A DNA stretch of 64,000 bases. It comes from Octopus vulgaris. Taxonomy: Eukaryota. Positions within the stretch are counted from its first letter, which is position 1. Every line of letters starts with the position of its first letter. The notes beneath the pieces were generated by a model. It did not search any database, was not told where the DNA came from, and worked only from the letters and a program-made list of their open reading frames with translations. The stretch spans positions 58,652,001 to 58,716,000 of the forward strand of contig OX597822.1 of NCBI GenBank assembly GCA_951406725.2, written 5' to 3'. Shown in pieces: positions 3,897 to 63,493 of the stretch. A program made the translations under genes and the position numbers.

Positions 3897-6060
3897 TCAC
3901 CAATGAATGAAGCATGTTCTCATAGCCTCTAGTTGATCTCGAACAGACAGCGCCCCTCGGTAGCACTGCCAGGCAAGGGATTTGTGGAAGTTGTCCATAG
4001 GCCCAAGCCCGAAAGTTCTCCGAAACAGACCGGTTAGTTGATCTTCATCGACGTCCAGAATTTCCCCGAGAACGTCGTCGCACTTTCCCTCCTCTAGCCC
4101 TCTATAGAACGCTAGGGTAGAACAACCACCGACCGTATTGCCCGCCTGGTGGAGGGCTGTGAGCGCTTGACGGCATTCGAGGTGCCAAGCGTCCCACCTC
4201 GGTCTACGCGCAATCCAGGATTGCAACTCAGTCAAAGTGACGAACTGTGGAAAAGCGTGTCTTATAAACGGTGATCATACCTGCTCAGCATCAAGGAAAC
4301 GCTGGAGATGCTACAACCTCAGCGCATGTCAGCGCATCAGTAACCACGGCATACCCAGCCCGCCCCCATTCAGCGGCTCTTGATAACAGATGGAGCGCCT
4401 GACCAGTGGAACGCATCCCTTCCACAGAAAGCGGAAGAGTAAGCGCACTAGCTTGGTCAACCAGCAAACAGGGCAATCAAGCGGTAATAGATGACGGAAA
4501 TAAGGCGGCGAGCTGGCAGAATCGTTAGCACGTCGGGCGAAATGCTTAGCAGTATTTCGTCTGCCGTTACGTTCTAAGTTCAAATTCCGCCAAGGTCGAC
4601 TTTGCCTTTCATCCTTTCGGGGTCGATAAACTAAGTATCAGTTACGCACTGGGGCCGATATAATCGACTTAATCCGTTTGTCTGTCTTTGATTGTCCCCT
4701 CTGTGTTTAACCCCTTGTGGGTAGTAAAGAAATGGGTAATAGATGACGGATGCGATGCACGCATTCGCCACCTCCGCTCGACCTTTCAGGGACAGCTTTC
4801 TTTTGGTCTATTTCTGGGTGAGATTGACCACCCTGCTCGTCACCTCGTCTCAGTTATTTTCCACCTGGAAGTCCGGACCAAACCAAAGTCCGAGCAACTT
4901 AACGGGACCGTCTGTCGAGTGCCCCGCCACGCTATTGGACGGCATGGGCTTGCCTCTCCAGATGCCGAGTTGCAAGCCCACTGACTTTTCTGCGTTAATT
5001 TTAGCTCCTGTCACCGCTTCATATACCTGTAGTGTTTCGCCAATCAGGTCTATATACCTGTGGTTCGACACTATGTCGGTGACATCATCAGCGTAAGCAG
5101 ACACACTTCTCCCACATTCTAGATCACGTGGGACATCTCTCAAACCCTCCAACTTTCGCAGTAATGGCTCAAGAGTCAGTACATAGAGAAGGGAGGAGAG
5201 AGGGTACCCTTGACGGACTGAATGCAAGATGCTGAATGGCTCCGACAGGTGACCATTAACCCGAACAACTGAGCAGATGCCGCTGTATAAAGCAGCGATC
5301 CAACTGCAGAAAACTGGGCTGAAACCGGCTGCCCTGAGGACAGACGCAAAGTATTGATGGTCGATCCTATCAAAAGCTTTAGAATGATCTAAATTGATCA
5401 GAGTCCTACCCATGTCAACTTCGTTACTCACCCTCTTTATGATGTAGCGCATAAGATGGAGGTTATCGTGAACACTCCTGGTTGAGATGGCGCAAGTTTG
5501 CGCCTCACCAACCAGCTTGACCATGACATGCGCCGACCTCTAGGGTAACACCTTGGCCAAAATCTTCAAATCTGCATTGAGCAGAGTGATGGGCCTGAAA
5601 TTCTCTATAACGTCCCCCTTGTTTGGGTCCTTTCTTAACAATGCCACTACCTCTCGACACACAAAGTGGAAATTCTCCCGTTTTGCTGCCAGTTGCAGAA
5701 GACATTTGCTAAGAGGCCCGCAAACAAGTCTGGTATCGAAATATAAAGCTCATAGGGCAGACCATCCAAACCCGGCGATCTACCTCTCGTACAACTCTTC
5801 ATCGCTTCCTGTATTTCGGTGGCTGTTATCGGCCTTTCACAGCACTCCGCCTCATCGAGTGTCGAGGCAGGCCGTCCAGGTAGACACCGCAGTCTGCTCT
5901 GTTATCCGTCCTACCATTCGTCCCGAACAGCTGAGCAAAGTGCCGCTGAAAAGCCGTACACATCTGTTTCGGCTCGAACACCAGTTCTGGTCCACCGAAG
6001 ACCGAATGGTGGCTTTCGTTCCCTCTTCGCTTAGTGAACGTACCTTAGCTCTGAAACGCT
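3897..6060 (-). mobile_element. Degenerate L1/Tx1-clade LINE ORF2 (RT and C-terminal part)
   Basis: ORF 4850-5524 has RT motifs LDHSKAFDRIDH, VRQGYPLSSLLY, AYADDVT, GAKINAEKS. Downstream frames give FLWKG...GGLGMP and AWQCYRGAL. Frameshifted. Confidence 0.92.
4499..4734 (+). mobile_element. tRNA-type SINE (family B) inserted in the Tx1 LINE
   Basis: Head GGCGGCGAGCTGGCAGAATCGTTAGC; core GTCGACTTTGCCTTTCATCCTTTCGGGGTCGATAAA; perfect 16-bp TSD GGTAATAGATGACGGA at 4483-4498 and 4735-4750. Confidence 0.9.
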
Positions 6061-8750: not shown

Positions 8751-9400
8751 TTATTTCTTTTAAATTGCCATAAAGGCATTACACATGTGGGGGACACTAT
8801 AACACATGTGGGGGACACTATAACACATGTGGGGGACATATAACAATTAAAAATATAAAAATAAAATATGATATAATGAATGACACATGAAAATGAACAT
8901 GAACAACAAATTAAAATATGATAACATGAATGATATCTGAAAATGATATGAAGAGTGTGCTATTCATCCCACACTGAGTAACACCACTAGCCGCCTCTGG
9001 CTCCCAAGTCCTTTTTTTCCTTCAGTCCAATCCTTTTTCACCTTTCTCCATCACTTAGTGACATCATTCTCTCCGCCATGCATTCGTAACCTTTTTCACC
9101 GGGAGGGGGGGGTCTTCTAAATTTTGTGGTGTCTGTTCTCTCCTTTTCTTTTTTTTTTCTTGTGTGGGAAATGAGGTGGGTGGGATTGGTGGCTGTATGG
9201 GGAGGGTGGGTCTGAGTGGTCTTGGGTGGGATGGAGTTGGACTGGGGTACCACATCATACTCAGTGTTTTTCCTTTTTTTCTCTTTCTCTTTCCGCTCTC
9301 TGTAACTTTCCATTCTTCCTCCTTTCCTTCGTCTGTCTTTTCTTCCTCTCTTTTCTCTTCTGTCTCCACAACTTTTTCCTCGGCCATTGTCCTCTGTAGA
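8751..9400 (-). mobile_element. Retroelement 3' fragment with ORF1-like peptide and shared tail
   Basis: ORF 9064-9387 has an acidic stretch, EEEWKVTESGKRKRKK and a Pro-rich region, resembling non-LTR ORF1 linkers. Tail TGTCCCCCACATGTGTAATGCCTTTATGGCAATTTAAAAGAAATAA; 21-bp unit x3 at about 8780-8842. Confidence 0.45.
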
Positions 9401-9459
9401 GGGCAGTATGCTCTAATATGGCCCTAAGATTGTCTCCCTGAGACCGCTTTGCGTAATCG

Positions 9460-10900
9460 ATGCGGTCGGCTTGTGGGTCCAAGGACTTCAATAGGAATCT
9501 CCTGAAGTGTAACCAGGGTCCGAAGACTTCCTTCCTGGAAATGAAGATGTTTCTCAGATCGAGATATTCTTACCCGTTCAGCTACGCACAGCTTGCAACG
9601 CTTGCTCCCGTTGATGTAGTTGGGGAGGCGGTTCTTCTAGAATCTTCCATGAGATTACGTGTGGTGTCCCTTCATCCTTCAAGCCCCATCCTTCAAGTTC
9701 GGGATCCTGAACGAGGATTTGTGGTTGGAGAGGTGCTGCTTGAAGGTGTTTCCGGAACATCCCATATATCTTCGAACACTGCTGCTGGCGATGCTGCTTC
9801 TGGTGTGGTTGACGCTGCTACTTCCGCTGGAGCTGTTGCTGGTATTGGCGTCGTTAGTACTGGCGTAGGGGACATCATCAGTGGCGGTGTTGGTGTTAGC
9901 ACTGTTGGTTCTGCTATAGCCATCGTCTTTGCTGTTGGAGCCGTTATCGGCGTTATATTGGTGATGACTGTTGTTGTCGATGTTATTATCGTTATCATTA
10001 TTAGCATTATCATTAGTGATGGTGCTGCTGCTATTTCCTTTAGAATTGCTGCCGTTGTCGTTAATAATACTTCTGTAGAAGTAGTTGGGGAAACCAATGC
10101 TGCTTTTAGGGTCAGATACCACATCAGCCTCGTAAACGATCCCCTTGGTTTCCCATTGGCCTCCTACTGGGCATTTGCTGTAGTTCCTGTATGAGTATTC
10201 CGCCTCCACTTGTGGTCTAGGGGTGTTAACTAAAATGCTCTTAATATTGGGGAACAGCTAAAAGAGAATCTTAGGTTGTGTCTGATGAATATGTGTTCGG
10301 ACGTGTGTGATTGTGTAAAGTGTTTATCCACTAATCTAAGGAATATCCTACCTACTTTACGGAGAAGGTGGGTGGGTGGGCGGCAAACAACCCGATATTT
10401 CTGTGAGTGTTAGGGCCCGGAATGTAGGAGATCATAAACCCGCTAGCAGCTCGAGCCTCGTTATAGTAGGGCGCTGCCGCGTCAAAAATCTTTTGGCTAG
10501 AAGAAAGATTCGAGATCCTCTTGCTGACACCTTTCACCGGGAGGCTGTGTTGATATATGCCAGCCTCTCGTTTGGCTTGCAATCGGGTCTGTATGTTCTA
10601 GGGCCCAAGTCGGGCGTAACGTCTAAGAAGTCCTCGGTAGTAAAGTTGGTCCCGATTGTAATTTTCAGTCCTCTAGAGCTAAGGATGATAATCAGATCTT
10701 TCCTAAGCCTATCTAGGGTGTGCCCGTTAGCTTCTCTAGAGATTGTAAGGACATCATCTCTGTAAAAACCAGAGTGGACAGAGGGGAATTTCTTCTTTAG
10801 TATCGAGGATGTACAACCAAATGAGGTTGCATACATCAGTGCTGTCTTAGACCCCCATCACTATGTCAAAAGAGTCCACGGGATCGGTTCGCTTGACCTG
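9460..10900 (-). mobile_element. Degenerate Penelope-like element (RT + C-terminal GIY-YIG)
   Basis: Frames give FDIVMGS..DVCNLI.LYIL, GFYRDD, DFLDVT, KRISNLSS..IFDAAAPYY, CPVGG..GIVYEA..YMGCSGNTFK..NHKSSF, WGLKD..SWKILE, NGSKRCKLC. Many frameshifts. Confidence 0.9.
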
Positions 10901-35018: not shown

Positions 35019-37405
35019 CAGTAAAACCTAGCAGTTCGAGTGCACCATTGTACGAGTAATTTGCTGTACGAGCCGAGGCTCGTGCGAATTTTTGTCTTGA
35101 AGTACGAGCGAAAATCCACAGAACGAGCGAGTTTCATACAAGCGACCGCTAGTCGGCCCTGAGCTCGCACACGCTCTCCCAACAAGCGCAGCCTCTGCTC
35201 GCTCAGTTCGCGTCTTTATCTCGTTGTGCAGCGTTCCTGTTGTGTTTTTCCAAGTGGTGTTTTGTTTTTTTACTTTTGTACATTTTTTGCTATTATTTTA
35301 TGATAATTAGTTGTGTTAGTCATGGGTCCTAAGAAAATTAGTGCAAAGAACAGTGCCGGAAGAAGAAAAGCTGATAACGATAGAATTGAAGAAAAAAATC
35401 ATTGATAAACATGAGAGAGGAGTGCGTGTAGTGGACATAGCACGTAAATACGACCGAAGCACGTCGACGATCTGCGCCATCCTGAAGAAAAAGAATGAGA
35501 TCAAGGCCGAGACGATCAAGGTAAAGGGTGTCTCCAGACTCTCAAATCAACGCACATCTATCCGCGAAGAGATGGAAAAATTACTTCTGTGGATCAACGA
35601 GAAGCAACTCACAGAGGATACGATTATGGAGACCATCATCTGCGAGAAAGCACGAACGCTGTATGGAGATCTCCTGAAGCAGAGACCTGGGACATCGACA
35701 GAGGAGACATCAACAGACGCATTTAAGGCCAGTCGTAGCTGGTTCGATAATTTCAAGAGGAGAGCTGGTGTTCATAGCACAGTCGGGTATGGAGAAACAG
35801 CGAATTCTGACACAAAAGCAACTGGGGGTTTCGTGTGTGAATTCCGTCAGCTCATCGCAGCCGAGGGGTACATCGTACAACAAGTATTTAACTATGATGA
35901 AACTGGCCTTTATTGGGGAAAAAAATTCACCAGAAGAACCTACATAACTGCAAAGGAGAAGAAAATGCCAGGCCACAAACCTTTGAAAGATAGACTAACT
36001 CTCGCCTTTTGTATCTATGCGAGTGGAGACTTGAAAATTAAGCCGCTCCTTGTCTACCATTCCGAAAATCCACGAGCGTTCAAATCACACAAAATCCTGA
36101 AGGAGGAGCTGCTGGTCATTTGTAGAGCAAACGTTAAAGCCTGGATCACCGGCAAATTCCTCACCGAGTGGGTCAACCTTATCTTCGGACCAGCTGTGAG
36201 AAAGGACCTTCTGGAGAACGATCTTCCTCTCAAGGCTCTCCTCATTCTAGATAATGCTCCTGCTTACCCTCCTAACTTCGAAGATGATATCCTGGACAAA
36301 TTCAAATTCATAAAAGTTCTATACCGTTCACGTAACACCACTCCTATTTGATCCCATGGATCAACAGGTAGTTTCTAATTTTAAGAAATTGTACACCAAA
36401 CACCTGTTTCGTCGGTGCTTTGAATTCACCGAAAGTACAAATCTAAACATTCGTGAATTTTCGAAGGAACACTACAATCTTGTTAACCTCCTGAAAATCA
36501 TCAGTATGGCAGGGTGTAACGAGGAGAACGCTGAATTCTGCAGGAAACTGTTGCCTGACTGCGTATCCGAAAGAGACTTCGGGGGGTTTGAGTCTGAGAC
36601 ACCTGTAGTCGAGGAGATAGTGTCTCTTGGCAAGTCCATGGACCTCGAGGTTGACGATGGGGACATTAACGATCTCGTCGAGGAACACTCAGAGGTGTTG
36701 ACGACATGAACTCCTGCAGCTTCAGGAGTAGCGGCATTCGGACGCGGTGGAAGAGATTGGTTCCCCGGAGGAGAACAGTGTAGCGGAGAAGGCTATCTCT
36801 ACGAGTGACATAAAGGCTGTGTTGGCAAGCAGTATGTTTCTGAATTTGTAAAAAAAACTATCATCCTGAAAACGTATCTACAGGTCGTGCAGTTGTTTTA
36901 TTTAATGACACGGCTCTGGATCATTTTCATAACATTTTGAAAGGCAAATAAAAGCAAACTTCTCTTTATGTGTTTCTAATGAAACGACTTGAAAGTGTGA
37001 AAAGTGAAGAGAGTGTGTCCAAAAAGCCTAAATTAAGCGAAGTGAGAGAGAAAACGTTAAAAATTGTTCTTCCTGAAGTTTTAATGGAAGGAGGTTCTCC
37101 TTCCAAACAATAATCCACCCCCTCTCTGCTCTATCGTCTTCCTCGCGCACACATCGTCCCATATTTAAGGTAATTCAATTAATAAAACCAGTTTATATAT
37201 TTTTGTATTTTCTTTTATTATGTTTTTTTCTTAATTGTCATTTTCCTTATAACTGCACCTTTTCTGTTTCAGAACCCATAAAAATGATTTTTTGGTGGTT
37301 TTGTCGGGCTGGAACGGATTAATTATATTTTAATTAATTTCAACGGGGAAAATTGATTTGTAAAACGAGTAAATCGTAAAACGAGCTCGGTCATGGAACT
37401 CGTAC
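35019..37405 (+). mobile_element. Tigger/pogo DNA transposon, near full length
   Basis: TA|CAGTAAAACCT left end; right end decayed and overrun by a SINE A fragment. Confidence 0.9.
35322..37113 (+). pseudogene. Tigger-type transposase pseudogene (CENP-B-type HTH + DDE_1)
   Basis: MGPKK start, frameshift into ORF 35341-36351 (ITIELKKKII.., FKASRSWFDNFKRR, VFNYDETGLYW, LLILDNAPAYP, NTTP), break before PMDQQVVSNFK, and C-terminal MEGGSPSKQ*. Confidence 0.93.
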
Positions 37406-48671: not shown

Positions 48672-48677
48672 TTTATT
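48672..48677 (-). terminator. Candidate polyadenylation signal
   Basis: AATAAA on the minus strand followed by a U/GU-rich tract, about 330 nt after the stop at 49011; lies near the left edge of the CpG-depleted domain. Confidence 0.45.
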
Positions 48678-49010
48678 TTTTTGTTATTTTTAGCTTTCTA
48701 CAAAAATATACTTCTCAAGTCAAGTAAAAGTATTTACACATGAGGAGGCAGAGAAGGGAGAAGAAACTATATGAAGGAACTGGGAAGAGTTAAAAAAAAA
48801 AGAGCATACAAAAGTTGAACAAAAACTACTTTAATAAAACATAAATAAATAAAAAAATCTACAGCTCACAAAAAAAAAAAAAAAAATTGATTCAGATGGA
48901 TGTATGTGTATATGGATGGGTGGATGGTATGGCAGTGTTTTCAGTCTTATGAATTGGTGAAAGTATGTAAAAATGGTGAGGTTTCTGTAATGTCTTTTCT
49001 GGAAGTGCAC

Positions 49011-49057
49011 TTATACAACAGATACATGTTCATCTTCAGATAAACCACTGTCCATGT
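49011..49057 (-). CDS. Probable terminal exon of the bHLH-ZIP gene (DMDSGLSEDEHVSVV*)
   Basis: Strong acceptor tttttttctctctatttcag|; phase 1 matches the donor at 56468; the acidic tail resembles Mxd C-termini. Confidence 0.55.
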
Positions 49058-49364
49058 CTGAAATAGAGAGAAAAAAACAAAAAGATAAGTAAATTTTATA
49101 TACATACAGACATATGCACAATTTTTATAATAATTTTGTTTCTTTATTATCCACAAGGGGCTAAACATAGAGGGGGCAAACAAGGACAGACAAACGGACT
49201 AAGTCGATTACATTGACCACAGTGCATAACTGGTACTTAATATATCGACCCCGAAATTCAGGGAAATTTGAACTCAGAACGCAATGGCAGACGAAATACT
49301 GCAAAGCATTTCGCCCGGGGTGCTAATGTTTCTGCTAGCTCGCCGCCTTAAATCTTTATAATAA

Positions 49365-49683
49365 TTACCTCCGCCTTAGCAAAGGTGGAGGTATTGTTTT
49401 CAGTTTGTTTGTCCGTGGACAAGATACCTCAAGAACCACTGGATGGATTCTGATGAAACTTTCAGGGATGTTTGGCCTCACGATTAATATGAACTCATTA
49501 GATTTTGGGGTCAATTCGATCGATACCAGACAAGGATTTTAGGCATTTTCCGTTTGTTTTTACTTAATGTTTGAGAGCAGTCAAGTTTATTTCAGATATT
49601 CTCATTTTAAAAACCATCTGACTAATTGTTGAGAGGACGTTGGTGTTGCCTTGGCAGAGGTTTGCACTCTCCGAGTGCTTGTT
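49365..49683 (+). mobile_element. HINE/DINE-1-like non-autonomous Helentron
   Basis: 5' TTACCTCCGCC with adjacent inverted copy GGTGGAGGTA; short (GTTT)n; 3' subTIR GGCAGAGGT followed by hairpin GCACTC-TCC-GAGTGC. Confidence 0.8.
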
Positions 49684-50401
49684 ATAATTGTAACGATAAT
49701 TGTTTCAAATTTTGGCACAGGGCCTGCAGTTTTTAAGGAGAGAGGGAAGGCAGTTACATTGAACCCCTGGTACTTATTTTATCGTCTCTGAAAAGGCTCA
49801 GACTATAAAGAGGAATGAAATGCTACTAAGCATTCTTTATCTTGTGTGAATTGTTTGTGTGTCACAGGGTAATGACGGAAGGATATAGGGGGAACCCCCC
49901 CCCCCAAAAAAAAGCATTCCCAATGACACAAACATACTTAACTCCAACCAAATATCATCACAATTTTAACACTTTCTGACAATATTGTTCAATCTGATGG
50001 TGTAAGCAAGAACATAAGCTACTGAGTTACATATGAGTGGATATGCACACACACACACACAACAAAAATTTAATCATCAGCACATGGTCACACATTTTTG
50101 GTAGGAGGCAGTGACATTTGATTTAATCAACTGCAGTATATGGCTGGTACTTTTAATATCTCAACCATAAGGTTTTATACGAGCACATTCATTCCCTTTC
50201 ACCTCATTATCTATCTATCTATCTATATATATACACACACACACACACAACAGGCTTCCAGTTTCCATCAACCAAAATTCACCAACAAGGCATTTGTCTG
50301 CCTGGGGTGAGGCTATAGTAGAAAGTGCCATGTAGTGGGACTGAACCTGAAATCATATGTATTTGCAAAGCAAAGCTCTTAATCACACAGCTGTGCCTGT
50401 A

Positions 50402-50444
<43 letters not shown>

Positions 50445-52819
50445 CTATTTATCATTAAGGTCATATAAAATAAGAAGAGAGAATGGAGTTTGGTATGTTC
50501 CTAATATTTGTTGTATCTCAAAAGCTTCCAAATGGAAATTAAATTATATTTCAAAGCCAACATCAAATATAGAAGCTTTCAAATTTACGCATAAAAGATA
50601 TATATAGATTTGTATGTACATGTGTGTGTGTGTAGTAATAATTATTAGAGCGTCAATGATTGATAAAACATAAAGCTCACAACTTCCACACCATATTTAC
50701 TATTTGTAACAGACATTACAACTAGTCTATATGAAAAAAATACTATGAATGTGCATAGATTTATGATCAAAAGTGTTCCAGCCACAACCACCCAGTCTTT
50801 TAGAGACATCTATGGTTACATTTTCTTCACCATTTTTGTGTGATTTATGTGAGATTTTGCTAACACCACCCAACATGTGTATACACCAAACAAGGAATAG
50901 ACTTGCATTGGCTGGCACCAGCAGAACTACCTAATCATTGAATCAGCCATCAACCTGCAAGCATCCTGGAGCACTGCCTTGAAAAGCCCCCACACTTCCA
51001 GTATTGTTCAACAGAACTCAAACTTTGGCCCAACTCAAGCATTCAAATTACTCTATAAAACGCAATGCTTATTTATTCACATTATTTTGAAGTAGCAATC
51101 ATGCTAATGTAGCTTCAAGATTTTCATGATGTGACTGTTTATTTTTACAACAATGCTGTATGGTAGGAGACTGAGAGAGAGCCTGAGTTCGACCAGTTTC
51201 AATGCTGAAGAGTTAAAATCCCACACAGTAGGGTTCAAGCATTCATGATTGTGACGTTATGCTTCCATCCTAACACATGTATATAATTCCTTAGTAACAT
51301 ATATACAAGTGCATAATATTGTCTATATTCAATGCATATGCATAAAGCTAGGCAACTGAGTAAGAAGTCATAGACCCCCAAGAGTAACACAACAGCATGG
51401 AAGACTTACATAGTAGCCAGACTGACACATTGCTGTGTAACTTCAGAACACTTAACACAGACCATACAAACATGTCAACCATTTCAAGATTTGAACAGAG
51501 AGCAAAAAAAGTGTATTAACCAGATTCTGGTGTGACCTTGGACTGTGTAACGAGAGAATCCAGAAATATATGTGTTTGTGTTTATTGTTAAGACTAAATT
51601 TATGAACCAGTGTTGTGTCCCTTTTAAATGGTCTGACATATAGAGATCGATAGGCTGGTGTGATTAATCAGTTCTTGAAAGTAATTCCCCAGCATGGCTG
51701 CAGACCAATGACTTACACCAATTGTCTCATACTCGTTACAGGGAGATGGATTAGCCGAATTGTTATAGGTGAGACAACATTAGCTTTTAGATTAGGCGTT
51801 TGTAGGTCCTTGAAATTAGACCCTATTTATATCTCATGACATTACTGACTTTCTGTGTGTGTGTGCAAGCAAGGCGGGTGAGCATAAATATAATCACTCC
51901 AGCTGATGCTTCAAATTAGTTTGTTGGTCTGGAAGATGTAAGAAAGAAACCATTGAAAAATAAGAAAAAGAAATTGTATCATTTCTCTTCAGAACACACA
52001 CAGAGGAATATTTAATCATAAGACATGACCCCACATAGCATGCTGTGGAAGCATAGGGGTCAAAAGGTGAGCCCATAATATACACAAAGGTAAAATCTAA
52101 TCCTAAAACTAAACTTATACCAACTGTGGTAGGAGTTCAACAATGAATACAACAGCACTGTAAAAGCCAAAGTTCAGGACATCAAAAAGAAAAAGAACCA
52201 CCAGAAAGGAAAGTTATTCATTGGAGTTAAAAATGAGCTGAGTATCTGAAAGTGAATACCTAATAATGTGACTTGAACGTTTTTCTTCACATTTCTTGTC
52301 TATCGTTCAGCAAAGATACATATTTATTTACACAGCAGCATCCATGCATAAATTATTCAATAATTATCACACATAACTACTGACATACCTTGGCTCTCAT
52401 ACATTCATTGAACAGTGCAATTCTGATGAACACACGCTACTCTTTCTTTCTTAACCCCCTTGCACTCAATTTTCACAGAACATATTAAAATAGTGTACAT
52501 TGACTATGACCCATAGTGTTATAAGGTCCCTGATGTAACCTACTCATGAACCACCAAAGAGCTAGCCTGTTATCTCATTTTACATCCTGCACTAAGCTAC
52601 AAATGATGTCTGACATTCCTCTTTTACTTGTTTCAGTCATTTGACTGTGGCCATGCTGGAACACCGCCTTTAGTCGAGCAAACCGACCCCAGGATTTATT
52701 CTTTGTAAGCCTAGTACTTATTCTATCAGTCGCTTTTGCCGTACCACTAAGTTATGGGGACGTAAACACACCAGCATCTCGTCAAGCGATGTTAGGGGGG
52801 GGGACACAGACATACTTAT

Positions 52820-52854
<35 letters not shown>

Positions 52855-53976
52855 CACACACATATATATACGACGGGCTTCTTTAAGTTTCTGTCTACCA
52901 AATCCACAAGACACTTGCCCAAGGTGCCACACAGTGGGACTGAACCTGCAACCATGTGGTTCGTAAGCAAGCTACTTACTACACAACCACTCCTATGCCT
53001 ATTATTCCTATTAACAAATTGTCTGTCAGCACAAGATGAGTGGAAAGAAAGACACCTATTGAAAAGATCAGGTATTATCAACAAGAGGGGTATTCAGCTG
53101 TAAAACAATATTCATCTAACTCATGCTAGCATGATAAAAAAGGATGTAAAATGAACAAAAGAATGAATCATGTATCACTGAAGGCTAGGTCTTTTGATCC
53201 ACTACTTTCCCTGAAAACATGTGAAGGTCTTTTGTCAGCATGCTTTTCTGTATAATTTGATGGGACAAAAACATTTATTTTACCATGGAAACTATTATGT
53301 AACTGTTCAACCAATCACTGGTAGCCCAAAGAGTAATGGGTAAGAACAAAATTATAAATTTCAAACTGTTCAAGATGTAAGGGTTGGCCTAATTGAAAAT
53401 GTAGGTAAGTAGATCCACTATTATAAAACAATAAAACACCTTATAAGTTGCATAAAAAATACCTTATTTTTTCTAAGTGGGAAACCTAGATGTGGTCATG
53501 GTTATTATATGTACTTGAGTGAAGTGAATTCATTTCAAGACTACTGAAACTGCAGCATGGGTTTTCTCTCATCAGAAAACATGCTTTAGGGTAGGTAGCC
53601 ACAGAAATGAGTTCAAATCCCAACAAGGTCAACCTTCATTTCCCTCTTTTCAAATGCCAATAAAACAAAAGTACCAGTTACATACTGGGTATGGATTACA
53701 CTTATCACATTGCTTAAGTGGGATTTCAATTAAGTATGCTAAATGCATCAATTTAATACCCACTTTTCCAAGGCCAGATTGCTCTTCCTGTTACCGATGA
53801 GGTTCCAAGCAAGGAAAAAACTTCCCGTTGGCTAGACATTTTTTCATGGAAGATTGCTGGACACTCACACGGTGACGCTTGTTTACAAACTATCATATCA
53901 ATACAAGAAGAAACATACTTGTTCTTATACACACAAATACATATGTAAGATATTCTACCAAAGCATTCTTCTAGGC

Positions 53977-54179
53977 CAGGAGTCTCCAAAGTGGTCAATA
54001 TCGACCCTATGGGGTCGATAAATGCACATCTACTTGATTATTGCTATTATTTATTTATTTTCTTGTACATGCCTGGAGGGGGGTGTCGATGAGGGGGTCA
54101 AGGATTCCACGAAGGGGGTCGATGAAGGGTTAAAGATTCCATAAAGGGGTCGATGGTCTAAAATGTTTGGGGACCCCTG
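53977..54179. mobile_element. hAT MITE
   Basis: TIR CAGGAGTCTCCAAA / TTTGGGGACCCCTG; 8-bp TSD TTCTAGGC / CTCAAGGC (6/8); repeated GGGGTCGAT motifs. Confidence 0.8.
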
Positions 54180-54275
54180 CTCAAGGCCAGCATATTTTTC
54201 CCCTCACACGATTATACATATAATACATGCAGCCATGTTCATATATGTAAATACACACATTTTATATACATACAA

Positions 54276-54316
<41 letters not shown>

Positions 54317-54349
54317 CACACATCACATACATATATTACATATATGTGT

Positions 54350-54800
54350 ATACACGCGGGAAACGTTGTAGACGGAAATGGCGCGATAAACCATCGTGTG
54401 TGTGTGTGTGTGTGTAGCTCTTATGTCTTACATGTTGAGTCGAACAATGCTTTAATGTCCTAATTTGAGACATTTAGACAATGAAATTATGCCGACTTAA
54501 CCGTTTCAATAAAATATATACAAAATGAAATCTTTTAGTCGATATACTTTTAGTGGAGGTGCTCCAGTATGTCAGCAAAATATATAGCTTGAAAAGTATG
54601 ACGAAGAAAGCAGCCTCGACAAAGAAGAATAGTTTCGCGGGCTTATACGGAGAGGAAGAAAAAGGAAAACGAACTCCGTACGCTGATTGGTTGCTGCTTT
54701 CCCGCCATTTCAACTGCAACAACGTTGAAGAGGCGGAGTTAGAGAACGGGGCGATAATTTAGAATATCGTATGTGAATTTGAGACGTCATGATTACGTAA
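54350..54800 (-). promoter_or_regulatory. CpG-rich promoter with E2F, CCAAT, GC-box, YY1/ETS and CRE motifs
   Basis: TTTCCCGCC 54698-54706, TTTCGCGGG 54633-54641, GCGGGAAA 54356-54363, CTGATTGGTT 54683-54692, GGCGGAGT 54732-54739, CGGAAATGGCG 54373-54383, GACGTCA 54783-54789; minus-strand donor CAT|GTAAGA at 54431. Confidence 0.65.
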
Positions 54801-56467
54801 GGAAAAACATTACCTTACATGTTAAACGTCTTTGTTATATAGTTTAGCCCGAAGTTATTACCCTACCTTTTGTTTAAAAAAAAGGCATTCCAGCTAGGAC
54901 ACCAGCGTTTTTTGTTTTTTGCTGGCGAACTCCTTTTTCTTTTTGAGACAGTACAATGTAGATATGAAAAAGACTCAGCGATCACTTAGCTTGTCGGGTA
55001 ACCACGTTTGGTTACCTAGTTTGGGATAATCTTTGTATTTCTGTCTAGTTCAAACCTAACTCGCACGCACACACACAGAGACTCCAAACAAGGAAGAAGA
55101 GGTAAGGGTAGCAGTATGGAGCAAGGAGGTAAATAATATCTGTAGTAGAGGTACATTAATGTATTTAACGAAAATAGCGGTGAAGGAAACGAGCTACCTT
55201 TCTACTTATTTCCAATTTAAATGTTTTAATTCGCATACTCCAAGAATGCCATAAAGTAAAGGAACGCGTATCACATACAGGGCCCCAGATAAGGCAAACT
55301 GAATCTTAAACGTACAAGCTTAAAAGACTGAACCTCCTCGACTCCTACCCATTGTCTGAACTGACCAGCCATTTACGACAGACAGTGGGGACTAAGAGAT
55401 TAAAAATTTACTTTCCTGCCAAATCAGGCAACCATATTAAATATAATTTATTTTTATTTATTAATTTGATCCTGAATAGCAAAATAAGCAAGTCAGTCAT
55501 GGCAAGATTAAAAAAAATGAAAAGACTACACTGAATAAATTTGGCAACAGAAAAAGCTTAATGGACCTTGCCTTTCATCCTTTCGGGGTCAATTAAATAA
55601 GTACCAGTTACGCACTGGGATCGATGTAATTGACTTAATCCGTGTCTGTCTTTGTTTGTCCCCTCTGTGTTTAGCCCCTTGTGGGCAGTAAAGAAATAAG
55701 AAAAAGCTTAATGGACCTCAACTGTCACATCGATCCCAGAGGGGTTATTTGAATTCAGAACGTGAAGAGCCGGAAGAAATACCGATTGTTTAGCAACATA
55801 GCCAGCATTTGTTAGTGGTAGTGGGCAGGGGTGGGGACAGCAAATTACATCGATTCACTACTTGACTGGTAGTTTGTTAAATCGGTCTCGAATGGAGGAA
55901 AGGCAAAGTTGACCTCTGCAGGATTTGAATGCAAAGCGTTATGAGCCGGGAACAAAAGCCAATCATGTACCCCTCGCCCACATGCAAAAACAATTCAGCG
56001 AACTCGCCGCCCTCCTTTTGAACAGCAAATCTGACCTCGGCGAGATTTGAACGAAGAATGTAAACAGCAGGGAAAATTGCTGCAACGCATTGCCCCAACA
56101 ATCTGACTGACAACTGCCGGCTCGCTTCCTTCCTCCTCCCAAGTATTTCTGACATGGGCTCAAGGGGAAAGGGGAGTAAGTCTACATTTGACTGGTACTG
56201 CTCTATTTGACCCCGGAGGGATAAACGGCAAAGTTGATCTTGGCGGGATTTGAAATCAAAACGTAAAGAGTCGCAAGAAATACAAGGGTGATTCGCTAAC
56301 GAGTCTGTCGAGCCACCCTCCTTACAGTAAATAATAAAGGCCCGATTTCCTGGAGAGAGAGAGAGAGAGAGGGAGAGAGAGAGAGAGAGATTGGTTAGTC
56401 GATTAAATCGACCCAGTATTTTGGGCAATGCCTTATCGACCCCAAAAACATGAAAGATAAAATGTAC

Positions 56468-56881
56468 CTGTTAGCGTTGCTGTGAAAGAATAATCTGTTC
56501 CGTTTTCCATAGATTGTATCCGCGCCTTTAGCCTCCGCCGGTGATCTGCCAAATTCTGTTTCTCGATCAGAAGTTCCTGCTCATGGAGCTTACAGTCCTC
56601 AATAGCAACAATTGCTTCATCGACTATTTTTTTTGTCGACGCTTTTGGATCATCGCGAATTTTTTCAACAGAGTCTTTTAAATGTGCCAGACGCACAGAC
56701 ATGGCAGCACGGCGCCTTCGTTCCAGTTCGTTATGAATTTTCTTCTCTTCGTCTGTCATGCATTTACGTTTCTTTCTCTCTGTTACGGCTGTTGATGTGC
56801 TACTACTACAACTGGTGTTTGTATGATTTGTGTGGGACAGTCTCACCATTGAGTCTTCGAGTGTTTCTGGAGAAATGATAG
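56468..56881 (-). CDS. bHLH-leucine zipper exon of a Myc/Max/Mxd-network-like transcription factor
   Basis: Acceptor tccttttag|, donor CAG|gtacat. Encodes KKIHNELERRRRAAMSVRLAHLKDSV..DPKASTKKIVDEAIVAI..EQELLIEKQNLADHRRRLKARIQSM with the H-E-R basic triad and L-L-L-M heptads. Confidence 0.88.
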
Positions 56882-58418
56882 CTAAAAGGAATTGAAATGA
56901 TAGAAAAAAGACCGTTTTATTTTACTTCATAAAGAAAAGTGATATGCAACATAGAATCTTTTGAAATAGTAAATTTACCAAGCCAAAGCAGACGGGAATT
57001 GAACCTACAACAATGGGATATTTTTGCACAGATTTCAATCTGCGGCCATGCCGGAGCACTGCCTATTCAGCTATAATCGATTACGCTCGAAGGGGTACGT
57101 ATTTTATCGATCGATCTTGTTAGGATGAACTAGCCCGGAATTTTAATACTGAGAACGTATAGGAGCAATATATAACCAAAAGTTTTAAAATGTATTGTCT
57201 CACATTTATCGTGTTTTTAAAAACTGTAATCGACCATAAAAGGAGATAAACTCAATCTTCGACGATCAAATACAAGGTTAATATATACACTTCGACGTAC
57301 TTCTGTTTGGGCAGCCAGGGAATAAGCCTCTATGTAGTCACTTGACCCACTAGAGATAGCACCCCCCCCCCCCCCATAACACCTCTACCGTCTTAGATAA
57401 TGTTGTCCTAACCCTAGATAAACTAAGACGATCTGCTCGATTAGAGCCATCCTAGGTTTAAACTACTACTTGGGTAGAAACCTGAAAATTTTAAGGGAAT
57501 GCAGACGGAATTGGTGATCTACGTAGAGCTAACTGGTTTTAATCGAAACCTACATAGAATCGAATTGTATGATCAGATAATTACTACAGTATTGATCCAC
57601 AAAAACACAAGCAAATGACCTGTTATATTTTATGAATTTAATAAGGAAGTAATTAAACAAAGAAACTCATTTACTGACAATATGACATGGACGCAAGGAG
57701 TGCAATTTATATAATTGTATCAGGCATACAAAAAACCCAATGTTTTATAGAAACAATAAAAAAAACCTAAAAACTATTTACTGAAAATTTCCTTACTGTT
57801 TTCATGAATTCAATTTACTGCAATAAAAATGCTTGTTTATTACGTACTCCGGCAAGTACTTGTAGGAGAAATACCTTTATTTAACTAATATCTTATACTA
57901 CATAACTAGTGTTTAATAAATACAATATATTTTCCCTAAGTTATAGAAAATATTTTATTTGGGGAAGGAACCCCGATGATCAAAGCAACACTCAATTCCT
58001 AACATCATTTAATCGATGGTTGATCAAAAGAGTCGGCAAGGGGGAGGAGATGAAAAAAGCATTACGGTATTTGTACTCGGTGTTTACATTCATACCTAGC
58101 TTTCAACCCTCCGGTGTCGATAAAATAAAAGTACCAATATCGACTTTTACCATCCCCTAACTATTTTAGGGCCTTGTGTTTATATTAAATATTTTATCTA
58201 TTCTTGTGCCAATATAGGGACAAATCTCTGTTTGTTGCAATAAACGCTAAATATCACGACTCCTTTATCTAAAAAGGGTCGAAAGTATTGCGGTTGATCA
58301 AGTTGATGGCAGGAGCGGGTCGATAGGTCGGTTGTAGTGGTTGTTCAGCTCCTAACTATAACTAAAAATGATCGAGCAGACTTATGGATCAAAAAGTATT
58401 TCAGTCATTAACACCGTC

Positions 58419-58468
<50 letters not shown>

Positions 58469-61400
58469 ACTGCATCAAGACTGATTTAAGATGGTAGAAA
58501 GGAATTTAGCTGCTATTTCTTAAAAATCGAAGGCGTATAAGAGGCTCCCTCTAACTTTGAGGTTCAAAATTAAAGGCACCGATAAACTTTCAAACTAAAC
58601 TTTCTAAAAATTTCCACTGTCTTATATTTTTTTATGCGAACACAATAAATAAGTTTGTTTTAACGATAACGCTGAAACATTCAGTGAAAAAAAAGTCTGA
58701 TTAATTATGAAATAACGACGAAAATACAACTGTTGCATTGAAAAACATTTATTGACACAAGACCACAAGCATGCAACGGGTGAGGGAGATATAGAATATA
58801 GTTGATCTTTATTTATTCAGTATTCAACACCTAGGGGGATATTTTTTCATTAAATCTGGAAGGAACTAGTGACCATATTCTGCGCAAACCCTCCGATAGC
58901 GATGAATCTAATTCCCTGGCAGGAATTGTAATTAAACTGAGAGCCTGAAATTATTTCACTAAATTGGAAACTATGCCCGTGAATTTATTACACGTATCAA
59001 TCAGAATGTCAAAAGTCTTTTAGGGCGAATTTTCAGAAGAGGTGTTTGCTTTTTAATATTTGACACTAATTAACATAGTACAAATTGAAGATTAAACTTC
59101 TTAACACATTAGCTGACATATACATATTAACTCACGTCAAACTACAAAACAAGTTATTAACTGATAAAAGGAAACGTCTCGCATCCCTTTTAACTGGGCA
59201 ACACCTCAGCCCTATTCATCTCCTGTATTAAAAAAAAGGACTAAATTCTATTTAGTATATAAAACATTAGAGGGACCTTAAGCTAATTTTTTTTAACTGT
59301 TGTCTTGGGAGATACTCTGCGAAAGACTTTTTAGAGAATGTTTTTTTTTTTTTTATCAGCAAAGACGTTATACAAAAGTCACCCCACTCGCCATCTCAAC
59401 AACCCAGTTTAAGTGACTATTTTCGTGTAAGGTACAACCTATCACTTTCACTTATCTATCCTTTTAAAGATCATACTTGTTAGAGAAACAGATGGAAGCG
59501 AGGGGGAGGGAGACAGTTGAAATGTGAATTAGGATGCTTGACATTGTATATTCAACTCACAGAAAGAAGTGCATATAAAAAGAGATAAGAGAATTGATAG
59601 TCACTTTAGAAAGAAAGAGGGAATGAATTTGGTGTAGACGGTAAGAAAATCAGACTAAGGTTGCTTTTCTAGTTCGACTTTGCCAGAATCAAAGACAAAG
59701 TAAGCCACCAGTCATATGACGAGATCCAATCATCACATTTTATTAAAAATAAAGAGACTGTGCTTCATAAAGAACTCTCTCAGCTGTGAGAAACGATGAA
59801 GCTAAGAGGTAAATTCTCTGCAAATAGATACAGCGACCTGGTTTCGTTTCCACTGGGAATAGCAGCAACAAACGGCGTGTATGCCCATAGGAGAATAATG
59901 TTTTCAGCTAAAAATAAACCTCTCCTTGGTTTTCGATAAATCTGAGTCTACATTTATAGATATGGAATGAAGAAAAATAAAGTTTTATCTAGCTACTATG
60001 AGATCGTAGGGGGGTATAAGGGACAGTTTCAAAAGTAAGTCGCTATAGTATCTCTACAAAGACAAACTAACACAATTAAACTTTGTTAGTTCTGCTATAA
60101 CACTTTGTTTTTATCGTCTGAATAAAAATTGCTTATTTGTCAGGATACAACCAGGGAATGAGGGACAGAGTTGTTTGAATTAATGTCACTGGTATTTATT
60201 TATTTTACTGGTAACGATCGAAGAAGTTTGACCCATCGTCTCTCAAGTTTAAATAAAAACGAACGAGGGATTGGTTACAAAATGCATAGACAAAAGGTTG
60301 GCTGGTTAGAAGTATTAGAGCTTCGTTCGTTGCTATGGCGTTTGAAATGACTGGGTTACGTATAAAAAAAAAAAGAGAAGAGAGTAACTTAGTTACCCCG
60401 GCAGTTTTTTCACCATGCTGATGTGTGTAAGTGTAAGTGTGTGTGTGTTGTCATGCCGGTTGTCAAAAATCATGAGGTGGAAGGAAAGTGTGTCTTCAAT
60501 ACGGTTCGTGTGGGAATCCCAAGACTAGTTTCCTTAGTATTCTTTTTCTTTCTTTTAACTTTAACAAAGTGTAACCTAAACGTATAAATAAACTTATACA
60601 AAGCAAAAATGCTCTGTGGTAAAATTTGTCCAAATCTACAAAGAACTGGTATGGTAAGACTGACTGGTCGTAAAAGTTAACCATTATGAACAAAATACAT
60701 TCATAAATATACGCTTACAAGCATTAGTTATCAATGGAGTGTTTGCTTTCCCCACCACTATTGTATGTTTAAACGAGCTAACGAGGAAGCCTCTACATGA
60801 CCATTCAACCTGCTAGAAATAACAGCCAAATTCCTTATACCCTACCGTTTTAAAAATGGGACGTACTCCCTCATCCCATACCCATTATGGCATTTGCTAA
60901 TCAGGGTTGACCTCAGCGTACTTTAGGGTACAAAGAAAGTAAGCTTTGAGAACAAAAGGAAAACGCTATTTGTTGACAGAAAGAGAGACAAAAAACTGAA
61001 TAATGTCCAGAGTGAAGAGTTTATTCGAACCCCTAATTTTTGAATAGTGTAAGTATAAATTAATGTGAAAGAAGAGGCTACATGTTCCGGTGGTGGGGTA
61101 AGTGTATAAGTGTATGCTGTTATCTAACTTACAACTGATAAATTATTGTTTAGCCCATGGTAGCTCTGATTGAGCAGATCTATGAACAAGAACCTTCTGG
61201 GTAGTGTAATTATCTGAATATATATATATTTGACTAATATATTATTTGTTCTAATTTAGTAACTGACTCCACCAGATTCTTGTACAAGAATCGAAACGAG
61301 AAACCCTACATCTAACAGAAGTGGAGTCTCGCTGCTATATTGACTATTCTTGTTAAATATATGTTTTTTTATACAAGTTTCAAGCATTAATTCAGTGACG

Positions 61401-61618
61401 TTCATGTTTGTATTGTAATTTGTAATTTTTTAAAATTAAGTTTACAGTCGTAATATAGAAGATCGTCGCCGGTCAAGCGATTACATAGAGACTACCTTGT
61501 TAATTAATATGTATTGAATAGAAATAACAAAGTTATGGTAAGGAGTAATTAATTTTAGTAACGAAGAAGGGTTTGATTAGAAACGGAACAAAAAAAAACA
61601 AACAAAAAGGAATCTTAC

Positions 61619-62288
61619 CATTTCTTTTCCCTTTCTGTATTCGTCGGTCGAGGTTTTTCTTTGGAGGTCGACCTCTCTTCCCCTTTTCCTTAGGCTGGGG
61701 TTTGTTTGGGGTCTGTTCAACTGGAACTTGAAGATTTGATTTACTTAGTAAAGTCCGAAAATCAAAAGAATTCTCAGATGTGTTTAATCCGAGTGGTGAA
61801 TCTGGTTGTGTTGACAATGGGGAACCGACAGAAGAGTGTTGGGACCAGGGTGAGGGTGGTGCTGAAGTTTGTGAAGAGAAGAATTCTCGTGATGAAGATG
61901 ATGGCGATGGTGTCTGTTGTTCGTCTTGACCAGTTGCCAAGAAATCCGACTCATAATTGGTGTGCGTGGGTGAAGGGTTCGCAGATGATAAGTTAGGATT
62001 AGGATTACGAGTCGATCTGCTATTGCGGTCTGTGTTTTCGCTGTTGTGATTGTCAATACGATTAGCAACAAGAAAGTCGGGGTCTGCAAATAACATTTCA
62101 AAATTATCGAAGTTGAAATCACTGAAAGGATCCGACGACGATAGCCATTCGTCGTTGACAGAACTTAACTCCAGAGACTGTGACATGAATTCGAACTCTT
62201 CTAGTGTAGGATCATTATGAAGTAAAGGCCACGTAGAGGGGTCAATAAAATCTGCTGCTATTTCACTCATACTTTTTCTATCGTTCAT
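61619..62288 (-). CDS. First coding exon of the same gene: acidic/aromatic N-terminus, Ser/Pro-rich region, AT-hook (KRGRPPKK)
   Basis: CAAA-ATG context; 223 open codons of non-repeat sequence; donor ATG|gtaaga in phase 1 joins in frame (G|CT) to the exon at 56881. Confidence 0.85.
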
Positions 62289-62599
62289 TTTGTGCGTTTA
62301 TATATATAGTCCTTTTAACTAAATAAAGTTTACGCGTGATATGTTCAATGTATTTTGCACGTTAATTTTTCGCCTCAAAGTAAGCCAGATTTTAAAATAT
62401 GTGTGCATGTATATAATATATATATATAAATATAATTATATATATATTTATATATATATATATATATGTACAAACACAAAAAAATTCAGACGTTTACAAA
62501 AAAAACGTTGCAATTCAAACTGATGTGTGTAATTCCAGTGTAAGATCTTTGGTGTTAAAATACAACCCCAGTTAAAAAAAAAACAGCCGGCTTTGAAGC

Positions 62600-63139: not shown

Positions 63140-63493
63140 ATTCTTTTACTTGTTTCAGTCATTTGACTGCGGCCATGCTGGAGCATCACCTTTAGTCGAG
63201 CAAATCGACCCCAGGACTTATTCTTTATAAACCTTGTACTTATTCTATCGGTGTCTTTGCCGAGACGGGGATACAAACACACCAGCATCGGTTGTCAAGC
63301 GATGTGGGGGGGGGGGGGGGGACAAACACACACACACATATACATACACATATATACGACGGGCTTCTTTCAGTTTCCGTCTACCAAATCCACTCACAAG
63401 GCTTTGGTCGGCCCGAGGCTATAGTAGAAGACACTTGCCCAAGGCGCCACGCAGTGGGACTGAACCCGGCACCACACAGCCACTCCTGCGCCT
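63140..63493 (-). mobile_element. SINE family A
   Basis: Matches other copies. Confidence 0.88.

Follow-up and report, generated by a model that had tools for sequence, protein, structure and literature searches.

Myc-type proteins that combine a basic helix-loop-helix with a leucine zipper (bHLH-ZIP) but lack Myc boxes have been reported from all cnidarian classes (PMC10177328). One of them, Hydra Myc3, is a protein of 197 residues with a short N-terminus, a well-conserved bHLH-ZIP and no Myc box at all, and it dimerises with Max and binds E-boxes with a Kd of about 1.6e-8 M (PMC10177328). Among molluscs, the snail Biomphalaria glabrata carries five lineage-specific Myc duplicates, Myc1-5, in the account of PMC5381572, and NeuroD1, in which an AT-hook-type motif lies N-terminal to the bHLH, reads AT-rich sequence 3 bp from its half-site according to PMC8431614. 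Here, we describe a gene on the minus strand of a 64,000-nucleotide stretch of the Octopus vulgaris genome (contig OX597822.1, positions 58,652,001 to 58,716,000; hereafter the window, with coordinates counted from its first letter). The gene encodes a box-less bHLH-ZIP protein of 376 residues that, on balance, is probably a fast-evolving Myc duplicate, predicted to bind CACGTG as a heterodimer with Max. For the present, the gene stands as a divergent paralogue specific to its lineage, of a kind known from cnidarians and a snail, and we infer that box-less Myc proteins arose independently in cnidarians and octopods. The gene has already been catalogued as Myc-like, and the new part is the small family to which it belongs, marked by a hook resembling AT-hooks, a basic extension ahead of the bHLH and an acidic tail.

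The 1131-nucleotide (nt) coding sequence yields 376 residues and a stop codon from three minus-strand exons, all joined at GT-AG splice sites, much as an earlier note on this DNA had assembled them from three phase-compatible exons. Coding exon 1 (61619..62288, 670 nt) holds residues 1-223 and the first base of the codon for A224. Intron 1 (56882..61618, 4737 nt, phase 1) separates it from coding exon 2 (56468..56881, 414 nt), on which the entire bHLH-ZIP lies uninterrupted, and intron 2 (49058..56467, 7410 nt, phase 1) leads to coding exon 3 (49011..49057, 47 nt including TAA), which encodes an acidic tail ending in EDEHVSVV. The junctions are based on splice signals and annotation, and both introns end in pyrimidine-rich AG acceptors. 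In Myc genes, the whole bHLH-ZIP is likewise carried on one exon behind a phase-1 intron. Within the 1.7 kilobases of upstream sequence that the window offers, an in-frame stop lies three codons 5' of the ATG, and the orthologue of Argonauta hians begins at the equivalent of M7 (62270), so that further coding sequence is unlikely to have been missed at the N-terminal end. O. vulgaris CAI9727889.1 (P0005), annotated as "myc proto-oncogene protein-like", matches the translation at every residue, but may stem from the same genome and is thus not independent. Orthologues are present in O. sinensis (XP_029641997.1, differing at 2 of 376 sites), O. bimaculoides (XP_014772167.1, 374 residues) and Argonauta (GAB1603523.1, 391 residues, 67% identity), in line with the lineage-restricted network factor that the note had foreseen. 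With the Argonauta protein as tblastn query, all three exons were recovered, exon 3 weakly (11 of 15 residues identical, E 0.12). Given the annotation and this conservation across species, the gene is judged to be real. Where exons 1 and 2 join, the Argonauta model (P0004) is longer by 21 residues, for which tblastn found no match in intron 1 of the window.

Homologue searches define a family of at least 11 members, consisting of octopod paralogue A (this gene), octopod paralogue B (CAI9742976.1, XP_029654790.1, XP_014787880.1, GAB1607183.1; P0009/P0018/P0029/P0010) and a third group known from Logan/ENA sequences (P0011, P0028, P0012, P0014), whose identity to A and B across 46 bHLH columns is 48-57%. 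All family members that are assigned to a species are octopods. When 1.84 billion representatives were searched exhaustively with HMMER (E<=0.001), 10 matches emerged, namely seven family members, two Mnt-like proteins, one Max-like protein and no Myc; the labels "Mnt-like" (P0013) and "Max-like" (P0016) are ours and follow from residue states. Through two further searches, P0028, P0029 and a single canonical Myc joined the matches listed, and in the last of them this canonical Myc was the sole non-family match listed. The members share a KxKCM[ST]xxEK extension ahead of the basic helix (in nine members, the remaining two of the 11 being fragments that start at Met), a loop end and helix 2 of the type DxKASxKxIVDEA, and an acidic tail, with EHINVEV or CSVVEIM at the C-terminal ends of the relatives. 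The third group carries a perfect KKRGRPRK hook and ends in EEEHINVEV, which presumably resembles the WDR5-binding motif. Two of its members, P0012 and P0014, look like genomic fragments and part from P0011 immediately after a Gly-Lys that closely follows the zipper. This break suggests an intron of phase 1 at that point, as in the octopus gene. A metagenomic locus (L001, one of 180 pattern matches obtained with the family profile) was rejected as a chance match, as it runs antisense to a long bacterial open reading frame (ORF).

The N-terminal part of the octopus protein differs from Hydra Myc3 in being long and conserved, with an acidic and a Ser/Pro-rich segment as well as a hook. Residues 1-75 (62064..62288) comprise 17 D/E, 11 F/W/Y and 2 K/R, are predicted to be disordered and likely form an activation domain, while a cluster of SP/TP sites in the Ser/Pro-rich region (residues 121-185, 61734..61928) possibly serves as a phospho-degron. 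The hook KRGRPPKK (residues 204-211, 61656..61679) shows an RGRP core with basic flanks and resembles both an AT-hook and a nuclear localisation signal (NLS). When the N-terminal part is shuffled 5000 times, RGRP turns up in 0.16% of cases, and the Pfam AT_hook profile (PF02178) gives 13.2 bits here and 15.0 for P0011, below its curated cut-off of 17.4. The family signature KKRKCMTDEEK (residues 260-270, 56742..56774) forms a basic extension ahead of the basic helix. It is followed by the bHLH (residues 269-320, 56592..56747; Pfam HLH 28.6 bits against a cut-off of 20.7), with H273, E277, R278, R280 and R281, a 9-residue loop and a helix 2 starting T-K-K-I-V-D-E-A. The leucine zipper (residues 321-348, 56508..56591; L327, L334, L341) aligns with that of c-Myc without gaps and, at the four positions that Omomyc alters, carries E324, K331, H337 and R338. 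An AlphaFold model built on a 7-row alignment confidently shows the bHLH-ZIP, with helices at 267-294 and 306-349, the latter being a single helix in which the heptad zipper continues helix 2; the predicted local distance difference test (pLDDT) is 88-97 over residues 261-350 and below 50 for 250 residues. Region by region, with the O. sinensis protein as the aligned sequence, the acidic-aromatic N-terminus shares 46/75 residues with Argonauta, the adjoining linker 17/45, the Ser/Pro-rich region 47/65, the surroundings of the hook 25/38, the following linker 15/34, the KRKCM extension (residues 258-268) 11/11, the bHLH 47/52, the zipper 18/28 and the tail 14/28. Thus, the disordered part holds conserved motifs of its own. 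The acidic-aromatic N-terminus, Ser/Pro-rich region, bHLH-ZIP, CACGTG-type basic region and in-register zipper had all been recognised in the earlier note and are borne out; its AT-hook stands as a motif, with GRP in all eight full-length family members, but falls short of the Pfam threshold.

The absence of Myc boxes MBI and MBII and of a Sin3-interaction helix, which the note had also reported, held up as well. Neither Myc_N nor Myc-LZ matches the octopus protein in Pfam at E<=1, while the canonical Myc P0030, used as a positive control, scores 188.9 bits with Myc_N. Six-frame inspection of the gene span revealed no peptides resembling MBI, MBII, MBIIIb or the Sin3-interaction domain, and the Sin3-interaction helix pattern matches only the Mnt control P0015. 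The note had allowed for a Myc-box exon that it had missed; such a hidden exon in the window is rejected, since tblastn with P0030 matched the bHLH only and a fuzzy six-frame motif scan gave five near-matches, all at or below 46044, outside the gene span and several of them in repeats. In two Myc-named Atlas clusters, Myc_N is itself present in only 41-43% of the members.

The assignment to a branch of the Max network therefore turns on the bHLH-ZIP, which we compared using the position numbering and diagnostic residues of McFerrin and Atchley (PMC3177325) and rows of the lophotrochozoan alignment of Bao et al. (PMC5381572). The class B residues typical of the Max network, His at b5, Glu at b9, Arg at b12 and b13, and Leu at H110, are all present (H273, E277, R280, R281, L291), while V310 stands in place of the class B Leu at H205; every family member but P0014, which has Leu, shows Val here (10 of 11). 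Position b10 is Arg in all 11 family members and in 16 of 16 Myc rows and Lys in the complete Mad (10/10) and Mnt (7/7) rows, with two Mad rows and one Mnt row set aside for truncated or aberrant basic regions; Arg at b10 also occurs in Max and MGA (PMC3177325). The loop KIRDDPKAS has nine residues and no Gly at position 2, as in Myc, where all 16 rows seen have nine residues and Ile or Val at position 2 is Myc-type; the Mad loop has nine with Gly at this position (12/12), and Mnt and Max loops have eight in 7/8 and 3/4 of the rows seen (PMC5381572). Finally, Z17-Z18 are H337-R338, like the R-R of c-Myc and unlike the E-Q of Mxd and the Q-N of Max. With c-Myc (PDB 1NKP/6G6J) and mollusc Myc, the octopus protein thus shares the class B basic residues, b10 Arg, the 9-residue loop, a gap-free bHLH-ZIP, charged zipper core positions and an acidic N-terminus.

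A different origin would be from Mxd or Mnt, with the Sin3 helix lost, an acidic N-terminus gained and a repressor turned into an activator. Paralogues A and B do share Glu at b7 and Ala at H101 (the string HNELE occurs in both), A has Thr at H201, and the 9-residue loop is also that of Mxd. An acidic post-zipper tail, as the octopus protein has it, is found in Mxd. However, the published markers fail: b10 is Arg, H106 is Arg rather than Cys, S-T-K stands where Mxd has Thr-Thr-Leu and Mnt has Ser-Asn-Leu, the loop lacks the Gly of Mad and exceeds the eight residues of Mnt, and paralogue A has H-R in place of Glu-Gln at Z17-18. Moreover, b7 and H101 differ in third-group members, and with the family profile Mad1 scores 14 bits below c-Myc, opposite to a true Mnt control. 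We therefore consider an Mxd/Mnt origin improbable, even though Mnt-like proteins are the top outside matches of the exhaustive HMMER search and the maximum-likelihood (ML) tree leans to Mnt without significance (bootstrap proportion by resampling of estimated log-likelihoods, bp-RELL, 0.68-0.78). The mosaic of Myc, Mxd and MGA that the earlier note had read into this domain does not survive the same markers. Glu at b7, part of its Mxd signature HNELE, also occurs in Myc (3 of 16 rows) and gives way to His in four of the 11 family members, and its Mxd-like helix-2 Thr at H201 is present in four of the 11 members, the other seven having Gln (six) or Lys (one).

The third part of that mosaic was ERRRRxxM, an MGA-like motif that the octopus protein does contain. 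It can hardly be taken as a sign of a truncated MGA relative, a derivation that seems highly implausible altogether, as ERRRRxxM also occurs exactly in Biomphalaria Myc5, and ERRRR in Lottia Myc and Drosophila Max, in the rows of PMC5381572. MGA does carry Arg at b10 and falls near Myc in some of the trees presented in PMC3177325, but a T-box, second bHLH or other MGA domain is absent according to Pfam, which finds HLH only, and 376 residues contrast with an MGA that is very long by description. The searches themselves brought up no MGA sequence. The duplicates of Biomphalaria decay in a similar manner to the octopus protein: in their bHLH, the part compared, the H201 Lys of the PKV motif is gone in 4 of 5, b7 is acidic, KAS appears in Myc3 and ERRRRxxM in Myc5 (PMC5381572).

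Comparisons with solved structures also point to Myc. By sequence, the best solved-structure match of the octopus protein is c-Myc (25.5 bits, against 14.5 for Mad1), and by fold ranks 1-9 are all MYC:MAX, Myc-Max or OmoMYC entries (rmsd, the root-mean-square deviation, 1.0-1.8 Å), none of them at E<=0.001. The family profile scores Max at 43.5, c-Myc at 40.5, USF2 at 34.9 and Mad1 at 26.6 bits, while the true Mnt control scores Max at 40.7, Mad1 at 28.8 and c-Myc at 24.1 bits. Since Max leads for the Mnt control too, it is a generic top match, and the Mad-versus-Myc contrast therefore points to Myc. In the ESM Atlas, which provided leads, the best feature matches were unnamed HLH clusters (0.91, 0.90, 0.89) followed by Myc-named ones (0.87); for residues 255-352 all feature scores were below 0.9, and the two naming-grade structure rows were Myc clusters. 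A derivation from Max, or from an older separate branch, with homodimers or A/B heterodimers acting on DNA independently of Max, appears very unlikely. It would account for KAS at the loop end and an invariant Asp at H206, both recalling Max, for the top profile scores of Max and the Max-like P0016, and for the more neutral zipper of paralogue B. Yet, the loop has nine residues, not eight, none of the Max residues Arg at H201, Ala at H202 and Gln-Asn at Z17-18 is found, core positions of the paralogue A zipper are charged, and the high Max score is the generic effect noted above.

Several observations weigh against a Myc origin. The octopus protein has S-T-K where Myc has [AP]-Lys-Val at L16-H201-H202, Glu for the Myc Pro at H115, and Val for the Myc-invariant Leu at H205. 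Conservation of the zipper does not extend to the whole family: paralogue B has M at Z11 and E-N at Z17-18, and Argonauta A has L at Z11 and Y at Z17. Max ranks slightly above c-Myc with the family profile, profile comparison places the Max-like (71.8) and two Mnt-like proteins (64.0, 61.9) over canonical Myc (50.9), and the exhaustive search retrieved these rather than any Myc. No post-zipper acidic tail on an exon of its own was seen in canonical Myc P0030. In the tree, which comprised four reference proteins drawn from outside Mxd and MGA, the family forms one clade on a long branch with 97-98% support, and beyond the lean to Mnt none of three placements was rejected by the approximately unbiased (AU) test (p 0.18-0.84), Myc obtaining p 0.36 and 0.18; P0012 (4-residue gap) and near-identical duplicates were omitted, as were the zippers of three third-group members in the longer alignment. 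Judged on its boxes and several invariant sites, the protein fails strict Myc membership, and the most fitting label for it is a Myc-like Max-network factor, likely Myc-derived. Compared with the Myc family, it lacks MBI/II/III/IV, the basic residues at b1, H104 and H201, the H115 Pro and the H205 Leu, and shows in addition the GRP hook, the KRKCM extension and the acidic tail on a third exon.

Traces of Myc boxes may be found in the sister paralogue, whose entries are mostly annotated as uncharacterised. All three paralogue B proteins scanned contain [DE]HxY, which we take to be the consensus of the HCF-1 motif, and a TPP motif; [DE]HxY occurs in about 1% and TPP in 0.4-2% of shuffles, both motifs having been picked after being seen. 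In Octopus paralogue B, an acidic EVNVC stretch precedes [DE]HxY, the same order as MBIIIb and MBIV in canonical Myc P0030. In Myc, MbIV bears the HCF-1 motif and MbIIIb the WDR5 motif (PMC7793627), and paralogue B, read at the level of these motifs, keeps Myc-box-like remnants. These remnants would suit an explanation in which the family is what remains of octopod Myc, the canonical box-bearing gene having been lost and paralogues A and B carrying its function, B with HCF-1 and degron motifs and A with none. RefSeq does list the gene as "myc proto-oncogene protein" in both O. sinensis and O. bimaculoides, but automatic gene names track the best match. Similarly, no box-bearing Octopus Myc appeared among the matches listed, in searches that were not designed for canonical Myc and used no mollusc Myc query, and one such search also missed the family member P0010. 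As seven of the eight lophotrochozoans tabulated in PMC5381572 carry one or two Myc genes, we regard such a loss as improbable too.

Taking gene structure, fold, residue states and family membership, which were read directly, as the starting point, we infer how a Myc-derived factor of this kind may act. H273, E277 and R281 would read the E-box half-site, with CACGTG specificity predicted because the base-reading positions b5, b9 and b13 are intact, as in known structures. At the zipper sites that differ between c-Myc and Omomyc, E324, K331, H337 and R338 are all charged or basic, so that homodimers would be disfavoured and Max needed, although this is not a family-wide rule, since Argonauta A keeps only two of the charged residues and paralogue B differs. 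The grip of the bHLH on DNA is probably weaker than that of c-Myc, because E269, S285 and T306 replace the basic residues of c-Myc at b1, H104 and H201, positions listed as phosphate contacts in these proteins (PMC3177325). The invariant KKRKC extension and the GRP hook probably contribute non-specific affinity for DNA, and nuclear import as well, from a flexible tether. Lacking both MBII and a Sin3 helix, the protein would draw its output from the acidic-aromatic N-terminus, acting as an activator or a competitor at Myc/Max targets rather than as an active repressor, and cut off from Myc-box cofactors, as proposed for Hydra Myc3 (PMC10177328).

Alternatively, hook and bHLH could act jointly on a composite site of E-box and AT tract, as the earlier note had proposed for a "very AT-rich" genome, a description that does not fit a window GC content of 39.2%. 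A GRP core with a basic flank is present in all eight full-length members (strict RGRP in 5/8). NeuroD1, a class-A bHLH protein, provides the precedent. However, the distance from the hook to the basic His is long and variable, with values of 42, 64, 67, 67, 88, 134, 136 and 294/321 residues across the family, the linker is disordered, the hook of paralogue B is PGRP, and the Pfam score of the octopod hook, whose function is putative, is below threshold. The hook is thus likelier a tether and NLS than half of a fixed composite site, and the joint model is rather unlikely. A bolder possibility, which we consider unlikely, is that octopods use an undescribed hook-bearing box-less branch, either in place of canonical Myc or as a seventh arm of the network. 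The hold on DNA would then have moved from the backbone contacts of the bHLH to the AT-hook and basic extension, and cofactor contacts to a new acidic N-terminus and C-terminal tail.

The architecture struck the earlier note as unfamiliar, and in the open-access literature no description of the octopod family or of an AT-hook in a Myc-network protein was found; its parts nevertheless have precedents in cnidarian box-less Myc and the NeuroD1 hook, and the gene was annotated as Myc-like. The exact strings IVDEA, KASQK, HNELERR and HNHLER have 0 occurrences in the supplement of PMC5381572, the main text of which does not mention octopus, and PMC8384421 contains myc only in a reference title. Since the gene is publicly named octopus "myc" though every Myc box is missing, it could be confused with the canonical growth regulator in work on expression or regeneration. 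The family also represents a natural experiment with a Myc-type bHLH-ZIP freed of cofactor boxes, asking whether a hook can offset lost backbone contacts, and if octopods truly were without canonical Myc, they would join nematodes as rare Myc-less animals.

Around the coding exons, CACGCG is found at 62338, just 5' of the ATG, and the likely 3' untranslated region (48672..48850, minus strand) contains tandem ATTTA (48850, 48846), ATTAAA (48835) and AATAAA (48677). Tandem ATTTA together with poly(A) signals 3' of the stop fits a short-lived mRNA, as for myc genes. Among the window ORFs of at least 70 residues, no other host protein-coding gene is evident. A broken Tigger/pogo-type transposase lies at 35320-36709 on the plus strand, with HTH_Tnp_Tc5 and DDE_1 across two frames, and a fragmented retroelement without long terminal repeats (non-LTR) at 3897-6044 on the minus strand, with RVT_1 (70.9 bits) at 4853-5539. 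Repeat-like ORF fragments occupy 9064-10857 on the minus strand, including a Lys/Glu-rich ORF (9064-9423) and pieces that look Penelope-like by eye (9679-10857); two of these fragments gave no meaningful match in Pfam. Many copies of short interspersed repeats, along with microsatellites, are spread across the window, as is typical of Octopus genomes, for example at 52650-52960 and 63150-63490, and also lie inside intron 2.

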